Virus record (IMG/VR): IMGVR_UViG_2721755660_000011 | Reading direction: 5' to 3' (one strand) | DNA from: a virus | Lineage: Duplodnaviria > Heunggongvirae > Uroviricota > Caudoviricetes | DNA: 52,258 bases | Shown: positions 32,975 through 43,960 of the stretch, in pieces | How the letters are laid out: each line of letters opens with the position of its first letter | How positions within the stretch are numbered: position 1 is the first letter of the stretch | The notes under the pieces: model-generated | Databases searched by the model: none | What the model was told of the DNA's origin: nothing | Seen by the model: the letters and a program-made list of their open reading frames with translations, nothing else | Program-made: the position numbers and the translations under genes

Positions 32975-33051
32975 TGGCGCGTTGTACTGGATTCGAACCA
33001 GTGACCGATTGCTTAGAAGGCAATTGCTCTGTCCGACTGAGCTAACAACGC
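32975..33051 (-). tRNA. tRNA-Arg (anticodon UCU), phage-encoded (argO/argN-like)
   Basis: Reverse complement GCGTTGTTAGCTCAGTCGGACAGAGCAATTGCCTTCTAAGCAATCGGTCACTGGTTCGAATCCAGTACAACGCGCCA folds as canonical cloverleaf; anticodon loop CTTCTAA. Confidence 0.8.
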
Positions 33052-33152: not shown

Positions 33153-33228
33153 TGGTGGCCCTTGCTGGATTTGAACCAGCGACCTGGCGATTATGAGTCG
33201 CTCGCTCTCACCACTGAGCTAAAGGGCC
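33153..33228 (-). tRNA. tRNA-Ile2-like (anticodon CAU), phage-encoded (ileZ-like)
   Basis: Reverse complement GGCCCTTTAGCTCAGTGGTGAGAGCGAGCGACTCATAATCGCCAGGTCGCTGGTTCAAATCCAGCAAGGGCCACCA closely resembles E. coli ileX-type tRNA; anticodon loop CTCATAA. Confidence 0.8.
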
Positions 33229-38490: not shown

Positions 38491-39829
38491 CATAAGCGCT
38501 AACTTAAGGGTTGAACCATCTGAAGAATGCGACGCCTCGGTGCCTCGTTAAGACGATGCCTCGCGTTCTTCAATTGCGTTTTGTAGGCTGTCAGGGATAC
38601 TGTCCCACGAATGGCCACCTGTAAGCTCCAGATGACCATTTTTGTTATTCTCCACAACGAGTTAGTTCTTCTTTTCGGATCCGGCACTTCTGGGGGGGAA
38701 ATCCAGCGATGGCTGGATTATGTCGTCAATTAAAAATGCGGCGAGTAGATTAGCAAATATCCACGCTTTCGCGAGTTCAGGTTCCTTTGCACGCAAAGCA
38801 TCCAGGTGCAGCAAACTTTTGAGCCGCTTAAAAGCCAGTTCAATTTGCCATCGCAGACGGTAACAATCAGCCACTTGCTCTGCTGAATATTCATCTTCCG
38901 GTAATGATGTTAGCAATAGCACATGGCCCGCTGCTTCCAGCGTTTCCGCCTGAACTACTCGTCCTTTTCGACGATTCTCGCTGAGCAGTCGGGTTTTACT
39001 GATTAATGCTTTTTCGGGAGGAAGTGATACGGCAATGAGACGTGCCGGAAAGGGAGCTCCGGCTTTTTTATTACCTGAATTGCCTATCATTACAGTGGTT
39101 TCACCGTTCTTACCGCAATCCAGCCCGCGCAGAAAACCCATCATGTCAAAGCGCATTCCTTCTGCAGTTAACCAGCGCAATCCTCGCCAGTGAACCCGGA
39201 CGATATAATCAGCTTCTCCAAAAGCAAGTGAGCGGATACATTCGGGACGCGAACCGAATCCCCGGTCAGCAATGCGTATCTCGTCTGCCGTTTGCGCAAA
39301 TCGGTCCAGCCGTTCAGCGTCTCTGCTGTCGGTTAGCTCAAAATCAGTGAACTGACAGGTATGAGGATCATATCCCATATGTAGTCGCCATTCAGCGCTG
39401 CCGCCCCCGGGCGCACTGATTGCTGTTCCATCGACAAGACGCAATCTCTTTCCGCTTGTACAACCCGTAACTGCGGCGCGTACAGCAAGTGTTTGTGCGG
39501 CAAGTATGCCAAACCAGTCGGCGGCATTCCGCAGCCGCTTCAGGAGAGCCACGTCAGATAATGTTGCAACGTCATGGAGCTGAGCCCATGCAGTGACTTC
39601 ACGTAATGACATCCCCCCGGGGCCGTAAGCCAGCCCCAGACGTAGCAGAGTTGCAGCATCACGAATTTCGCGGCGGCGGGTTAGAGCCCCGGCATTACGT
39701 GCCGAAGTATCCAGTTCTTCGGGCTTACCAATATGGGCCAGAATTGCTGACCAGTTATCGTGAGAGTAATTCATCGGCACGTTAAATCATATCAGGCGTA
39801 ATACCACAACCCTTAAGTTAGCGCTTATG
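38491..39829 (-). mobile_element. IS186 insertion sequence
   Basis: Terminal inverted repeats cataagcgctaacttaagggttg (38491..38513) and its reverse complement (39808..39829); 1339 bp; single transposase ORF; flanked by 10 bp direct repeat. Confidence 0.9.
38662..39780 (-). CDS. IS186 (IS4-family) transposase
   Basis: 372 aa ORF (MNYSHDNWSAILAHIGKPEELDTSARNAGALTRRREIRDAATLLRLGLAYG...) matches my recollection of IS186 transposase. Confidence 0.9.
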   Translation of the reverse strand: MPMNYSHDNWSAILAHIGKPEELDTSARNAGALTRRREIRDAATLLRLGLAYGPGGMSLREVTAWAQLHDVATLSDVALLKRLRNAADWFGILAAQTLAVRAAVTGCTSGKRLRLVDGTAISAPGGGSAEWRLHMGYDPHTCQFTDFELTDSRDAERLDRFAQTADEIRIADRGFGSRPECIRSLAFGEADYIVRVHWRGLRWLTAEGMRFDMMGFLRGLDCGKNGETTVMIGNSGNKKAGAPFPARLIAVSLPPEKALISKTRLLSENRRKGRVVQAETLEAAGHVLLLTSLPEDEYSAEQVADCYRLRWQIELAFKRLKSLLHLDALRAKEPELAKAWIFANLLAAFLIDDIIQPSLDFPPRSAGSEKKN

Positions 39830-39839
39830 TCCCACACCC
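39830..39839. repeat. IS186 target site duplication, right copy (tcccacaccc)
   Basis: See left copy. Confidence 0.75.
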
Positions 39840-40103
39840 CCGCGTGGGTCAGGGCGTCAAACAGCGCCTTGTTATAGTTGTCCAGATCGCGGATCCGGTT
39901 ATCCGGAGGAAACAACACGATCTCCACTGAAGCAGGTGCCGACGTTGGTTTCGGCAGACGACGTAACTGCTCAACTATTGCTGCGCACGCCGCGCTCTGG
40001 AATTTTCGCCCCGCCGCGCTTATCAGGCTCTTACCAGCAAACGCCCCTTTGTTGGGGTGTCGCCAGTACGTGTTCACGCTGGGCGGGAAAGGCAGTATTA
40101 GCT

Positions 40104-40463
40104 TCATACTTTCAGGCCCCTCTCATGTAACCAGTGGGTTGCACGCAGCCTGGCGTTTTCCTCACCGGCAAGCAGTGAGCGGATAATCCCGACCGCCTCG
40201 CTGTCGTCGTCCTTCACCGCGGTATGAAGCGTTATCCCCCGGGCCACACCACGCTTTATCGTGATGACGCCTTTTTTCTCCAGTGCGCGAAGATGCTCCA
40301 CCGCTGCATTCACTGAACGGTATCCCAGCATGGTTGCCACCTCCTGATTGGTTGGCGGGAAGCCACGTTCTTTCTGGTAAGAAATCAGCATATCCAGCAC
40401 CTGCTGCTGGCATTGAGTTAACGTCGTCATTAAGCCCCCACGTAATTGCCTGACAGATACCAC
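40104..40463 (-). CDS. LexA-N-terminal-like winged-helix DNA-binding protein
   Basis: 119 aa; segment QQQVLDMLISYQKERGFPPTNQEVATMLGYRSVNAAVEHLRALEKKGVI resembles the LexA DNA-binding domain; no peptidase domain. Confidence 0.5.
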   Translation of the reverse strand: MVSVRQLRGGLMTTLTQCQQQVLDMLISYQKERGFPPTNQEVATMLGYRSVNAAVEHLRALEKKGVITIKRGVARGITLHTAVKDDDSEAVGIIRSLLAGEENARLRATHWLHERGLKV

Positions 40464-40918
40464 TCTTCACCCGATGCAGCGCGCTTGCTGCTTTTCCGTA
40501 AGCACCGCTCACGACGCGCCAGAAAATTGTTTCGTTCTGGCTTGGAGTGGCTTTCACGGAATGCCGCCATCCACACGGTTGCAGCACGACGAAATAAGCC
40601 CCTGGACTCCAGTTCTTCCGCCTGGCGGGTCAGGCACAAAATCACCCGTGGATCGTTAGTGCCGACATAGAAATTGCGCACAGGTCTGGTTTCACGAACT
40701 GGTTGTGGTTCCGGCTCCTGCGCTCTCTCAGTCAGGCGTGGGAAATGTCTGCGTGTATCTCCTTCACAACGGTGAGCCACACGCCCACTCTGACGTAACT
40801 TGCTTGCTGACTGCAGAACGCGCTGTCGTGAGTAACCAGCAAAAGCATCCGCAATGTCTCCTGAAGTACACCCCGGATGGGCTTCAATGAATTTCTGAAC
40901 TTCATTCAAAAGACTCAT
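40430..40918 (-). CDS. Hypothetical regulator with PerC-like C-terminal motif
   Basis: 162 aa; C-terminal segment AEELESRGLFRRAATVWMAAF resembles the conserved PerC/Pch-family motif as I recall it; N-terminal winged-helix-like region. Low-confidence family call. Confidence 0.35.
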   Translation of the reverse strand: MSLLNEVQKFIEAHPGCTSGDIADAFAGYSRQRVLQSASKLRQSGRVAHRCEGDTRRHFPRLTERAQEPEPQPVRETRPVRNFYVGTNDPRVILCLTRQAEELESRGLFRRAATVWMAAFRESHSKPERNNFLARRERCLRKSSKRAASGEEWYLSGNYVGA

Positions 40919-41739
40919 AATCCCCCCCTGAATCCTGCCGGGATCTGGCTGTAGTCCACGTTGTCGTAACTGGCTTTGAAGTACGGGTCCTCGCGTCTGG
41001 CTGCAGATACCGCAGGAACTTCCCAGGATTCTTCGAAATGACGATCCGGACCAAAGAACGTGACAGCCTGTTTCACAAATTGTGTGCCGCTGTTACCCAT
41101 CGCAGATACCCAGCCCGCGTAGCGTTTCACACCTTCCAGCATGGTTTCGGGGTTTACCCCCTCATTCAAACGGGCTTTCCAGGCTTTGAAGGCTGCAGAT
41201 TTTGAATTGCCACCAGCACGTTTGGGATAGGCCAGCCATGCCTGCTCAAACTCCGGAGAGTATTCCGGTCGGTTTGAACGAACTCGCACAGACTCATCAG
41301 CAGATGCACCAACAGCTATTGGTTCATTGACTGGTTCTTTGACTGGTTCAAAAGAGTGACTGGTTCTGGGTGAATCTCCTGCACTACCCCCTGGTGCAAC
41401 TCCTGCACTACCTGGTGAATTTGCTGCACCAGATAGTGAATTATTTGCACTACCCCCTAGTGAATCTCCTGCACCATCAAGATGAAGGAGATAGATATTA
41501 CTTGAGTTACCTTTTTCACCTTTCCGGGTGACTTTTTTTACCAGCCCAGACTCACAAAGGGCCGCAATATGATTCATCACAGAACGTTTGCTAATCTCGC
41601 ACTGGTCAGCAATATGCTGGTAGCTGGGCCAGCACTCCCCCTGATCGCTGGCATTATCAGCCAGCTTGATCAGAACCAGTTTTCGCAATGGATTACCCAC
41701 TCGAATTTTCATCGCTTTAACCATCAGCTCCATACTCAT
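40915..41739 (-). CDS. Replication initiator (O-like, HTH N-terminus, internal repeat array)
   Basis: 274 aa; N-terminal HTH; central Gly/Ser/Ala-rich linker encoded by DNA repeats; position downstream of cro/cII-like genes matches lambda O. Confidence 0.6.
   Translation of the reverse strand: MSMELMVKAMKIRVGNPLRKLVLIKLADNASDQGECWPSYQHIADQCEISKRSVMNHIAALCESGLVKKVTRKGEKGNSSNIYLLHLDGAGDSLGGSANNSLSGAANSPGSAGVAPGGSAGDSPRTSHSFEPVKEPVNEPIAVGASADESVRVRSNRPEYSPEFEQAWLAYPKRAGGNSKSAAFKAWKARLNEGVNPETMLEGVKRYAGWVSAMGNSGTQFVKQAVTFFGPDRHFEESWEVPAVSAARREDPYFKASYDNVDYSQIPAGFRGGL
41369..41476. repeat. Iteron-like direct repeats inside replication initiator gene (putative ori)
   Basis: Four to five copies of a roughly 20-24 bp motif (tgcactacc...gtgaat...) e.g. 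gtgaatctcctgcac at 41369 and 41459, ctgcactacc repeated three times. Confidence 0.55.
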
Positions 41740-41960
41740 GCTGCACCTCCGAGATGCTTCATGTTTTTTCCGGAGCGAAAGGCTATAAGCGGCATACTGA
41801 CGCGGTAATTACGGCCCAGCGGTTCACAAATCACCTTCTGACATTCACGGTCAACCAGGCTAACACGTAGAACATGCCCTGCTGGCGTGGTGTACCACTG
41901 ACCGGGGAGAGGACAACGGAAAGTCTGATTGGTAAATCGTTTGAAAATATTCCGGATCAT
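41736..41960 (-). CDS. Hypothetical small protein (74 aa)
   Basis: ORF with ATGA start/stop overlaps to both neighbours (translational coupling). Confidence 0.4.
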   Translation of the reverse strand: MIRNIFKRFTNQTFRCPLPGQWYTTPAGHVLRVSLVDRECQKVICEPLGRNYRVSMPLIAFRSGKNMKHLGGAA

Positions 41961-43120
41961 TTACGCCCCCTTACCTCTGAAGAGTTCAGCGACGAATGAA
42001 TAAGACGGGCAAGAAATGCCGCATCGTTAATTCGGTCATACAGACTTACAGCCAGCGGTGATTCAGCTTTTTCCAGCATGGGATAAAGCTGCTGCAACCA
42101 GACCTGATGAATTGATGAAATGTAGGAATAGAGTACGCTGGCGTTATGTGCAACGTCGCTCGGTACAGCGGGCTTTGAAAGCTGTTTCTCCATCTGGTTA
42201 AAGGCATTGATGTATGCCTCCTTGAACTGGGCTGCACGTTTGCCAGTGAAGCCCATTGCCAAGAACGCGAAGCCGTCGCGGGTGATGTGGTAGCAAGGAA
42301 GTTTGCGAGTACCGCCGTTGGGCTGGTGTACCAAAATTGATGTCTCCGCAAAATTGCGGGCACAAAACTCTGGAGAACAATCCAAAATGCGGATCTTTTT
42401 CAGAACATCGTCATGACGTTTAGAGAAGAAGTCAGCAACAGCCAAAGAAGATGTAACAGCCTGACCATCAACGATGGCAATTTCAGGTTGAGAGAGGGTT
42501 GGGAGAGTAGTCATGGTGACAGCCCCGGTAGTCAGTTTTTCAGAAAACTCACCACATGGGACGCCAATCACAGAGGTGGTGAGACGTACAGGGTTGGCGT
42601 TACCGGAGACTACCGAACCCGGCCCGACCGAAGTCGGCCCTGTACGCCCCACCATAATTTGGGCGTAGCAATGCTCATGACACGAAAAAACCGCATGAGC
42701 GCGGTTATGCTCAGTAATCAATTTCAGGACGCCAATCCCGGCACCCGTTTTATAAGGTGCCTGAACAGTGTAACGTCCCGGAATGGCAGAATCAATGTGC
42801 TGGTGGTCCTTCACACTCAACAAAATCACGCCTGAATTTCCACAAAGGACTAAAGCACTCATGCGGGTAGTCTTTGCGAAGATAGATAACGCGCTGTGTA
42901 TCTGGTTCCCAACGAATAACATGGACATAAAGCCCTCTTCCGTCACGAAACCAGCGGTTAAGTTCCTGCACAACTCGCCCCCCACAGTCAGGTAAAGTTC
43001 TCTGTGGTTACTTACAGCCAGGTGATTTGGTAATCTGCATTCATGCCGTAACAACAGGAGTTCAGCGACGCTGACCACCAGCTGTTGCGACAAACGGTTA
43101 TTTGCCGTTAAACTGTTCAT
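41957..43120 (-). CDS. Rha-family (ORF6N domain) phage regulatory protein with unusual ~200 aa N-terminal extension
   Basis: 387 aa; residues from about 205 (EIAIVDGQAVTSSLAVADFFSKRHDDVLKKIRILD...) resemble Rha domain; ATG at 43120 overlaps upstream stop as ATGA, supporting the long form. Confidence 0.5.
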   Translation of the reverse strand: MNSLTANNRLSQQLVVSVAELLLLRHECRLPNHLAVSNHRELYLTVGGELCRNLTAGFVTEEGFMSMLFVGNQIHSALSIFAKTTRMSALVLCGNSGVILLSVKDHQHIDSAIPGRYTVQAPYKTGAGIGVLKLITEHNRAHAVFSCHEHCYAQIMVGRTGPTSVGPGSVVSGNANPVRLTTSVIGVPCGEFSEKLTTGAVTMTTLPTLSQPEIAIVDGQAVTSSLAVADFFSKRHDDVLKKIRILDCSPEFCARNFAETSILVHQPNGGTRKLPCYHITRDGFAFLAMGFTGKRAAQFKEAYINAFNQMEKQLSKPAVPSDVAHNASVLYSYISSIHQVWLQQLYPMLEKAESPLAVSLYDRINDAAFLARLIHSSLNSSEVRGRK

Positions 43121-43746
43121 GCGTTAGTTTCTCCACAGACACAAAACGCCACGACGCCCGGAGCTGCACACTCGCGGGCGTCACTCTTTTCTGGAGCGCA
43201 AAAGATTTTGTAGACCAGTGCTGCATGCTCCTGGAGCTTCGAAATTGACAGATACAACTCATCATTAATTGCTGTCTGCTCGTGTGGCTCCACTACCCCA
43301 TCTTCGATTGCCGAACGAATCTGCTTTGAGTAACTCCCGATCTGTTCGATGACTTCCAGCAGGCGCTGGTTTATATCGGCGTTCTCTACTTCCTCAATTT
43401 CAGGAAGCGATACGAACACCCCACCAGCAGACTGTGCGACAGCATCCGCAATGTAGTGAGTGCCAGCTGCGCGCTGTAAAACCATTGCCCATCCCAGCGG
43501 GAAAATCTGATCGCCATCGGCACGAAGGCGGTTAAATAATGCGTTCTCTGTTACATCCAGCCAGTCAGCAGCTTCAGCGTAACCACCCGGCAACGCCGCG
43601 ATAGTTTTTCTGACAGCTTTCACGTACCACTCAGGCTGTTTTTCTACTTTCCAGTGATGCTTACCCACGGTTAACTCCTCGTTTCTGTGGTTACGTTTAC
43701 GCAACTGAACCGCTAACTTTTGAATAGCACTCTGGTAATCCATCAT
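43117..43746 (-). CDS. CII-position regulatory protein (possibly YdaT-family)
   Basis: ORF directly downstream of cro; start uncertain (ORF track gives 43779; internal Met at 43746); family call by position. Confidence 0.35.
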   Translation of the reverse strand: MMDYQSAIQKLAVQLRKRNHRNEELTVGKHHWKVEKQPEWYVKAVRKTIAALPGGYAEAADWLDVTENALFNRLRADGDQIFPLGWAMVLQRAAGTHYIADAVAQSAGGVFVSLPEIEEVENADINQRLLEVIEQIGSYSKQIRSAIEDGVVEPHEQTAINDELYLSISKLQEHAALVYKIFCAPEKSDARECAAPGVVAFCVCGETNA

Positions 43747-43960
43747 TTGGATTTGGATAAATATCAGGACGCAGCTCATGGGGGGTTACGGACCAGTTCC
43801 CCAGCTCACAAAGTTGTAAAACTCGTTCCGACGGGACTTGATTGTTAATTACCCAATTAGCGACAGATTGAGTAGATTTAAAACCAAAGCGACGAGCTAC
43901 TTCAGATAAAGACTTTCCCGCAGCCTTTACTGCTTTCTCGGTGTAGTTTTGAGATGACAT
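43697..43960 (-). CDS. cro: Cro-like repressor (HTH)
   Basis: 87 aa HTH protein divergent from cI across an operator-containing intergenic region. Confidence 0.7.
   Translation of the reverse strand: MSSQNYTEKAVKAAGKSLSEVARRFGFKSTQSVANWVINNQVPSERVLQLCELGNWSVTPHELRPDIYPNPNDGLPECYSKVSGSVA

Follow-up and report, generated by a model that had tools for sequence, protein, structure and literature searches.

The immI operon of phages P1 and P7 is arranged in the order a1 b1 - c4 - a2 b2 - icd - ant. For satellite phage P4, the section of PMC10111431 that summarises Forti et al. (1999) describes a promoter internal to eta that gives the immunity RNAs and terminated transcripts, a Kil protein that is translated solely on read-through, and a full-length Eta that is made only from the upstream promoter, in coupling with the upstream gene, and whose translation prevents termination. 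A further locus of this kind is isrK-orf45 (STnc1160)-anrP of Salmonella Gifsy-1 (PMC4825925), IsrK-C4 homologues in lambdoid prophages have been noted earlier (PMC3632133), and Rha/Ash proteins of unknown function are encoded next to cI in Shiga toxin (Stx) phages (PMC8951638). Here, we analyse a locus in a 52,258-nt stretch of DNA from a virus of the Caudoviricetes (IMG/VR record IMGVR_UViG_2721755660_000011), which as a whole is called the window. Its minus strand carries at 41957..43120 a real, P4 eta-like open reading frame (ORF) of 387 codons with an ATG start, which is in frame with, and ends as, a gene of the Rha family. A preliminary description of this DNA had taken the long ORF for a Rha protein with an unexplained N-terminal half of about 200 residues and had argued from its coupling to neighbouring genes that the long form is real. 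The 387-aa ORF and the five ATGA start/stop overlaps, at 43120, 41960, 41739, 40918, and 40107, are confirmed by the ORFs and the junction sequences, which also show a TAATG at 40433. The frame is probably no accident, given the ATGA coupling and the avoidance of stop codons described below, but it does not represent a 387-aa two-domain protein. We consider it quite probable that the locus consists of eta/kil-type nested genes arranged around an antisense-RNA switch of the P4/P1/Gifsy-1 type.

Codons ~110-202 of the long ORF overlie two RNA genes. Both lie on the ORF strand inside the region assigned to the 'Ash' family, and both match their Rfam models at full length and above the gathering thresholds. 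The first is an IsrK/P4 seqA-like small RNA (sRNA) at 42684..42760 (RF01394, 60.1 bits, gathering score 50, model positions 1-77 of 77), in which a terminator scan detected an intrinsic terminator (42706..42685, minus strand) consisting of the hairpin AACCGCGCTCATGCGGTT and a T run. The second is a C4/P4 CI-type antisense RNA at 42572..42659 (RF01695, 82.3 bits, gathering score 45, model positions 1-87 of 87), in which all pairs are canonical. Both RNAs are present in 12 of 12 tested loci that carry the Ash region and in none of four loci without it. A putative internal promoter, TTGATT-17-TACACT, can be read from the sequence at 42767..42795 (minus strand), 6 nt before the 5' end of the IsrK-like RNA, and its position relative to the RNA 5' end is that of the Gifsy-1 promoter TTGACA-17-TATATT-6. 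At the 5' edge of the C4-like RNA lies an ATG (42655, codon 156) equivalent to that of orf45, which is in frame with Rha without an intervening stop. Several peptide features of the long ORF coincide with these elements: the motif IDS..GRYT overlies the putative promoter, the conserved peptide HNRAHAVF is the translated hairpin and T run of the IsrK terminator, and IMVGR contains the AUG at the C4 edge. Similarly, the His/Cys segment EHNRAHAVFSCHEHCY, which had been pointed out in the N-terminal half, is the translation of the terminator hairpin and of the spacer after it.

Pairing within and between these RNAs was assessed in an alignment of 10 alleles (A3), using shuffle tests (n = 500) and controls in which the partner was slid. 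The elements concerned are the a' loop (42618..42608) and the b' single strand (42600..42594) of the C4-like RNA, the b1 box (42735..42729) and the a1 box (42719..42709) within the IsrK-like RNA, and the downstream boxes b2 (42567..42561) and a2 (42533..42524), all on the minus strand; the downstream boxes together span 42524..42567. Intramolecular pairs were 93% paired compared with 38-47% when the partner was slid, and the C4 helices were 100% paired in all 10 alleles, with eight compensatory pairs changed on both sides. Between the C4-like RNA and the upstream boxes 93.3% of positions were paired and 13 of 18 pairs had changed on both sides; for the downstream boxes the corresponding values were 93.5% and 11 of 17, and the slid controls for pairing between C4 and boxes gave 34-45%. 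In each of the three tests, neither the paired fraction nor the covariation score of the real data was attained by any of the 500 shuffles. The complementarity is specific to the allele, extending over 10-12 nt within an allele and ~5-9 nt between alleles, and at least seven a' types and three b' types occur among the 10 alleles. The a2 box contains the Shine-Dalgarno sequence of an internal ATG at 42514 (M203 of the long ORF) and ends 9 nt before this ATG in the window and 8-10 nt before its equivalent in eight of nine alleles. On this comparative evidence, elements of the C4-like RNA are predicted to pair allele-specifically both with the boxes in the IsrK-like RNA and with those upstream of ATG 42514.

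Our survey of cassettes and recognition alleles (loci L033-L109, L114, and L117-L236) also showed that the cargo behind the RNA cassette varies. It can be Rha (~181-187 aa), a 77-aa protein (MATVPALTRLNDEDL...), a 120-aa protein (..SPFLKIEVV), an AnrP-like protein, or others. Contigs L136, L137, and L152 carry two to three tandem cassettes, and in the proteins P0137 and P0153 the Ash-Rha unit is duplicated in tandem.

A protein-type pattern of evolution sets in at ATG 42514. Between the 5' end of the IsrK-like RNA and this ATG, variable columns are distributed over codon positions 1, 2, and 3 as 50/52/46 and show no periodicity, whereas from M203 onwards the distribution is 55/47/125, a strong excess at third positions. 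The nested gene (41957..42514, minus strand) encodes a Rha-family protein of 185 aa, and its Shine-Dalgarno sequence and an N-terminus of the form M(A/T)T.P are common to all alleles. Pfam Phage_pRha (PF09669) matches residues 223-312 of the long ORF (93.9 bits, cut-off 29.9) and TIGR02681 residues 214-316 (90.4 bits, cut-off 45.95). The earlier placement of Rha around residue 205 therefore holds, as the domain begins ~205-220 residues into the ORF, but the family is PF09669 and not ORF6N. The nested start corresponds in position to those of Gifsy-1 anrP and P4 kil, and the gene occupies the antirepressor/kil slot of the module; by analogy, Rha probably acts as an antirepressor-like regulator.

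Upstream of the two RNA genes, codons 50-110 of the long ORF read, in the +1 frame, through an intact DUF4222 gene (42792..42971, minus strand), which encodes 59 aa and has a GTG start behind a GGGGGG Shine-Dalgarno sequence. The product matches Pfam PF13973 (E 6e-14, 51.8 bits, cut-off 27) and, over residues 1-59 of 59, phrog_1343 (E 3e-36). The NCBI Prokaryotic Genome Annotation Pipeline (PGAP) annotates a separate DUF4222 gene in the near-identical prophages ET729 and Combat2C1; it does so too in Nissle 1917, without an Ash/Rha gene after it. To compare constraint on the two frames, we used polymorphisms in 42 haplotypes of the first 361 nt of the long ORF. The 18 polymorphisms inside DUF4222 are 11 synonymous and seven conservative non-synonymous changes in the DUF4222 frame; read in the long frame, the same 18 are three synonymous and 15 non-synonymous changes, including the common G63D and S66F. 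Radical polymorphisms are frequent in residues 65-102, S66F being seen in 19 haplotypes, and ~20 nucleotide haplotypes encode one and the same DUF4222 protein. Against Citrobacter braakii, the ratio of non-synonymous to synonymous polymorphism (pN/pS) is 0.18 for the DUF4222 frame, 1.32 for the long frame, and 0.05 for ymfL, which served as a control; over all comparisons the overlap gives 0.18-0.25 and 1.3-1.43, respectively. The DUF4222 frame is under purifying selection and the long frame is not.

Despite this lack of amino acid constraint, the long frame avoids stop codons over DUF4222. We call a codon at risk if A or G in its third position would create a stop in the long frame. Over the DUF4222 genes of L005, L007-L031, and the window, all 97 at-risk codons have T or C as their third base, compared with 31 of 62 codons without this risk. 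After synonymous recoding the long frame would be open with a probability of ~0.07 per sequence; it was observed to be open in 27 of 27. The absence of stops from the +1 (ymfM) frame over DUF4222 thus looks like selection for the transit of ribosomes and not for a peptide.

Codons 1-49 of the long ORF (42972..43120, minus strand) form a weakly constrained, ymfM-like leader, and the other frames contain no gene there. A by-eye alignment gives ~38% identity to the N-terminal parts of YmfM proteins from other Enterobacteriaceae, relative to which the leader has an in-frame deletion of 18 nt. Its pN/pS against Citrobacter is 0.74 and polymorphisms fall on codon positions 1:2:3 as 7:11:10; this ratio is not decisive for coding by codons 1-49, since a similar value, 0.77, arises in the 'Ash' region from another cause. 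The start of the leader overlaps, as ATGA, the stop of ymfL (43117..43779, minus strand), a CII-like gene of the Phage_CP76 family (PF06892, E 2e-14) which PGAP names 'protein YmfL' in identical genomes. When the spacer between ymfL and DUF4222 was scanned for a terminator or promoter, none was found. We rejected the idea of a programmed -1 frameshift at G_GGG_GGC (42982 region) that would lead from the leader into DUF4222, because the heptamer is the DUF4222 Shine-Dalgarno sequence here and is absent from e14 and Nissle. In K-12 and 24 of 25 species-level loci, ymfM shows one pattern: after an ATGA-coupled start at ymfL, it runs across DUF4222 in the +1 frame and terminates there after 157 nt, 9 nt short of the ATG that opens the following gene. 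This +157 stop is missing in the lineage of the window and in the Citrobacter locus L007, where the frame runs on. Codons 1-110 are thus a ymfM-like bridge ORF across an independently translated DUF4222 gene in the +1 frame. An arrangement in which the upstream 600 bp are another gene or noncoding and Rha starts near 42514 was what the preliminary description held to be incompatible with its view, and it is essentially what we find, because DUF4222 lies in the other frame, RNA genes lie upstream, and the conserved start at 42514 has a Shine-Dalgarno sequence targeted by C4.

The N-terminal half is not without family matches, as had been thought. Pfam Phage_ASH (PF10554) matches residues 117-212 (E 1e-10, 42.5 bits, cut-off 26), and the PHROG families 821 and 995 cover residues 61-387 and 106-384. 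One could therefore propose an Ash-Rha protein of ~285-323 aa, initiated, in line with PGAP and PHROG models, at M65/M67, M87, V98, or V103, in which Ash is a true domain that, for example, binds a repressor. The end-to-end matches to phrog_821 (324 aa) and phrog_995 (307 aa), the Pfam score above cut-off, the good Shine-Dalgarno sequence of M65 (GAAGAGGG, 5-nt spacer), and the Shine-Dalgarno sequence and ATG found at the V103 position in other contexts favour this proposal. However, the Ash region fails as a protein-coding domain: it has no third-position excess, its pN/pS is 0.77, Gifsy-1 reads the same conserved nucleotides in another frame, and the residues leading into it (65-102) accumulate the radical changes described above. 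Its conservation is instead accounted for by the two Rfam RNAs and the covarying RNA-RNA pairing boxes. PF10554 also matches a 137-aa 'cI protein' ORF that is still carried in the P4 record and lies over the P4 CI RNA; the coordinates of this overlap between family and RNA are 8168..8584 and 8420..8507 in phage P4 (L112) and 42480..42790 in the window. We take the P4 ORF to be obsolete, the P4 immunity factor being the CI RNA. Epsilon, the protein responsible for derepression in P4, falls into another family, PF25738, and has been equated with Ash in one paper (PMC8628076). Because PF10554 matches the cI ORF over the CI RNA and epsilon is PF25738, the Ash hidden Markov model (HMM) appears to be largely a shadow of RNA conservation, and an Ash-Rha protein is in our view unlikely. 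As a warning for method, a protein-family HMM such as PF10554 can be driven by conserved RNA genes.

Searches for other proteins sharing the N-terminal half, as had been suggested, count against a new domain: homologues of residues 1-100 are limited to a few enterobacterial ORFs, and the majority of distant 'Ash' relatives start at about residue 103. We also noticed odd N-terminal extensions of 90-220 aa on the 'Ash-Rha' proteins P0127, P0130, P0139, P0140, P0145, P0155, P0168, and P0205, which look like out-of-frame or antisense read-through or like runs across insertions. Given these extensions on database proteins, run-on ORFs upstream of the RNA cassette are apparently a recurrent problem of gene calling.

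Alternatively, the upstream part of the long ORF might be purely an artefact of annotation, with nothing upstream of ATG 42514 translated in frame and the frame open by chance. GC-rich structured RNA has few stop triplets, and the P4 'cI protein' ORF offers a precedent for an obsolete ORF over such an RNA. An ORF-agnostic scan of IMG/VR with the C4 5' pattern yielded 53 distinct IsrK-C4-cargo alleles, which fall into two classes. The 28 class II alleles, with AnrP-like and other cargo and including Gifsy-1, have stops in phase with the cargo and lie in no long ORF, and 14 of them carry stops in all three phases; the RNA module thus needs no ORF. Class I comprises 25 alleles including the type of the window and contains no stop in phase with the cargo ATG, compared with 100 and 66 in the other two phases. 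Its module lengths, 243 or 246 nt, are both multiples of three, and in the 10-allele alignment all 24 distinct stop-bearing columns are in the other two phases. Class I modules without DUF4222 carry a conserved Shine-Dalgarno sequence and ATG ~297-303 nt upstream, at the V103 position of the window, where the 'Ash' reading starts. Together with the stop avoidance over DUF4222 (97/97) and with P4 eta, which the cited section of PMC10111431 reports as translated, this makes a chance origin improbable. Furthermore, the long frame is open in 78 of 80 IMG/VR relatives and in Citrobacter braakii, and 1775 of 5426 complete E. coli genomes contain a match to the long ORF, for which PGAP calls vary between a protein of 387 aa, one of 321 aa with a DUF4222 fragment, and DUF4222 together with an 'ash family protein'. 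The frame stays stop-free and in phase all the way from 43120 to Rha; it is probably maintained by selection in the lineage of the window, as in P4 eta, and not by accident.

The view that a genuine 387-aa protein carries a new sensor or effector domain in its first 200 residues, fused to Rha, is largely refuted and hardly credible: the ORF is long, ATGA-coupled, and conserved as open, and annotated products are 383-387 aa long in PGAP and in several phage records, but residues 50-110 are the unconstrained wrong frame of a constrained DUF4222 gene, residues 121-202 within the stretch (110-202) that overlies the RNAs lack codon periodicity and owe their conservation to RNA covariation, residues 1-100 have few enterobacterial homologues, and a PDB sequence search returned no relative. 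The best 120 homologues of the full ORF are all 95-100% identical and useful solely for a variability profile, in which the N-terminal 110 residues are most variable. With only near-identical homologues to supply as an alignment for structure prediction, AlphaFold2 was run on the single sequence and was uninformative (mean predicted local distance difference test score 33; N-terminal half 22-35, C-terminal half 38-48).

Several observations weigh against nested genes around an RNA switch that ribosomes cross. The stop-avoidance counts take no account of shared ancestry. Codons 1-49 are nearly neutral (pN/pS 0.74), and the leader peptide may therefore be decaying. The putative promoter agrees with the consensus at eight of 12 positions and was not called by the promoter scan. 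The Shine-Dalgarno sequence of the nested gene in the window, GGGG, is weaker than the GGAGG of most alleles, and the V103 position, with a Shine-Dalgarno sequence and ATG in other contexts, is a GTG without Shine-Dalgarno sequence here. What suggests an antirepressor role of Rha is its position and the PHROG labels, and BLASTP of the window Rha against Gifsy-1 AnrP (E 0.76) indicates that the two are not homologous. Finally, read-through translation is not intrinsic to the RNA module, because the 28 class II alleles work without an in-phase long ORF.

With these points considered, the first 202 codons probably encode no conserved domain, and, by analogy with P4, the 387-codon frame probably serves as a conduit that is translated when transcription starts at the early promoter. 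Both RNAs would derive from transcripts of the internal promoter, as in P4 eta/kil and Gifsy-1, and the C4-like RNA would, by the same analogy, block translation of Rha; this block, the ATGA-coupled chain, and polarity would together keep the replication genes further downstream switched off. The upstream start of the long ORF would be present on transcripts of the early rightward promoter, and ribosomes handed on from ymfL could read through the terminator and the C4 region. Such read-through would override the RNA block and give an N-terminally extended Rha as well as the downstream genes. Our more specific proposal is that this translational conduit is itself what is selected: ribosomes passed on at the ATGA would cross DUF4222, the sRNA terminator, and the antisense RNA into rha and the replication genes, and early-promoter transcripts would therefore escape the RNA-based second immunity. 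We put this forward tentatively, with more doubt than confidence.

If true, such a conduit would extend the P4 eta mechanism to lambdoid early operons and explain a ymfM frame that is free of stops without amino acid constraint. It would also mean that Pfam 'Ash' and the NCBI 'ash family protein' largely reflect RNA genes. The filamentation attributed to YmfM of K-12 might then need re-attribution, because the clone used carries 53 of the 59 DUF4222 codons. The locus is widespread: thousands of E. coli and Salmonella prophage and Stx-phage genomes, the 'Eru' Stx phages among those affected, annotate it as one protein of 181 to 387 aa under names such as 'Rha family', 'peptidase', 'antirepressor', or 'ash family protein', and omit the DUF4222 gene and both RNAs. 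An antisense-RNA switch before antirepressor-like and replication genes changes the reading of lysis-lysogeny and of replication control in these phages.

The locus lies in the immunity and replication region of an E. coli prophage of the lambdoid, e14-like type. The order of genes along the direction of transcription is a cI-type repressor (44011..44772, plus strand), a cro-like gene, ymfL, the long ORF, a 74-aa gene, a replication gene, PerC, a protein with a LexA DNA-binding domain, and RusA, which is interrupted by IS421. ORFs, Pfam matches, junction sequences, and PGAP names define a translationally coupled chain downstream of the long ORF (39787..41960, minus strand), consisting of the 74-aa protein (41736..41960), an HTH_36/DnaD-like replication protein (40915..41739), a PerC-family regulator (40430..40918), the protein with the LexA DNA-binding domain (40104..40433; 108-119 aa, without an S24 peptidase domain), and the ATGA-coupled N-terminal part of RusA (39787..40107). 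The transposase of the IS4-like IS421 (38662..39780) sits inside rusA, and in the identical genome OkiPb01715 a C-terminal RusA fragment is annotated past IS421. Elsewhere in the window we found an Rfam IS009 match (3971..4168, minus strand; 120.6 bits, gathering score 117) and three tRNA genes (32978..33051, 33156..33228, and 50818..50890, minus strand), two of which are adjacent.

Among the systems compared, e14 of K-12 matches the 5' part of the locus. Like the long ORF, e14 ymfM overlaps ymfL as ATGA, starts with MNSLT..., and has a 3' half in the +1 frame of DUF4222; it differs in that it encodes ~108-112 aa and stops 157 nt into DUF4222, and the N-terminal part in the window has lost conserved P, W, and C residues. 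In addition, K-12 ymfM (b1148) contains an unannotated 59-aa DUF4222 ORF in the other frame, with a TTG start and a GGAG Shine-Dalgarno sequence (L006 4002..4181, NC_000913.3 ~1204001..1204180), and this frame is under purifying selection. YmfM of e14 is annotated as a cell division inhibitor, and the published clone, the full ymfM ORF in pBAD24, carries DUF4222 codons 1-53, an overlap the paper does not mention (bioRxiv 10.1101/2020.11.19.390815). Over the whole 1164 nt, the 'Eru' Stx phages, 1720a-02, cdtI, mEp460 (gp41), and ST64B (Sb41) share 80-95% DNA identity with the window, and their records annotate proteins only (287 to 387 aa) and no RNAs.

P1/P7 immI shares with the window a C4-family RNA (RF01695), whose elements match upstream boxes and downstream boxes over a ribosome-binding site, and a cargo gene in the antirepressor slot; at the upstream boxes of the window there is also a weak Rfam c4-a1b1 match. 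The window differs in that the cargo follows C4 without a separate icd gene. The Gifsy-1 isrK-orf45-anrP locus is alike in its dimensions, with an IsrK RNA of 77 nt, a gap of ~25 nt, a C4 RNA of 84-88 nt, and 54-57 nt to the cargo ATG. The AUG of orf45 lies at the 5' edge of C4 (42655 in the window), the C4 loop is complementary to the Shine-Dalgarno sequence of the cargo, and anrP begins with GGAGG-N8-ATG at the same spacing, 54 nt after C4. In Gifsy-1, however, orf45 ends as ATGA on the anrP start and the long frame is closed by three stops, whereas the frame in the window is fused, and the Gifsy-1 module follows antQ and is not part of an early operon. Since AnrP is not homologous to the window Rha despite the shared architecture, the RNA cassette appears to be portable between cargo genes.

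The same layout recurs in P4. When we re-derived the P4 locus, eta comprised 197-199 codons, its possible ATGs overlapped the stop of the upstream ORF88, and it enclosed the isrK/seqA and C4/CI matches before ending as the 65-codon kil, whose start lies 54 nt past C4 and is preceded by GGAGGctgccatc (acaGGAGGctgccatcATG). In P4 as in the window, the ATG of the long ORF overlaps an upstream stop, the ORF encloses isrK/seqA and C4/CI, and it is in frame with a short gene that lies 54-57 nt after C4 behind GGAGG-N8-ATG and whose product begins MAT...; PF10554 matches both ORFs. The nested product of P4 is the 65-aa Kil, whereas that of the window is a 185-aa Rha, and only the first residues (MAT/MTT..) are alike. 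The window module lies in a lambdoid/e14-like prophage between cII-like and replication genes. Furthermore, the P4 ORF starts 75 nt upstream of the sRNA, compared with 360 nt in the window, where it crosses the whole DUF4222 gene. The layout as such was already known from satellite phage P4; new here are its place in a lambdoid early operon, the Rha cargo, and a long ORF that runs over DUF4222.

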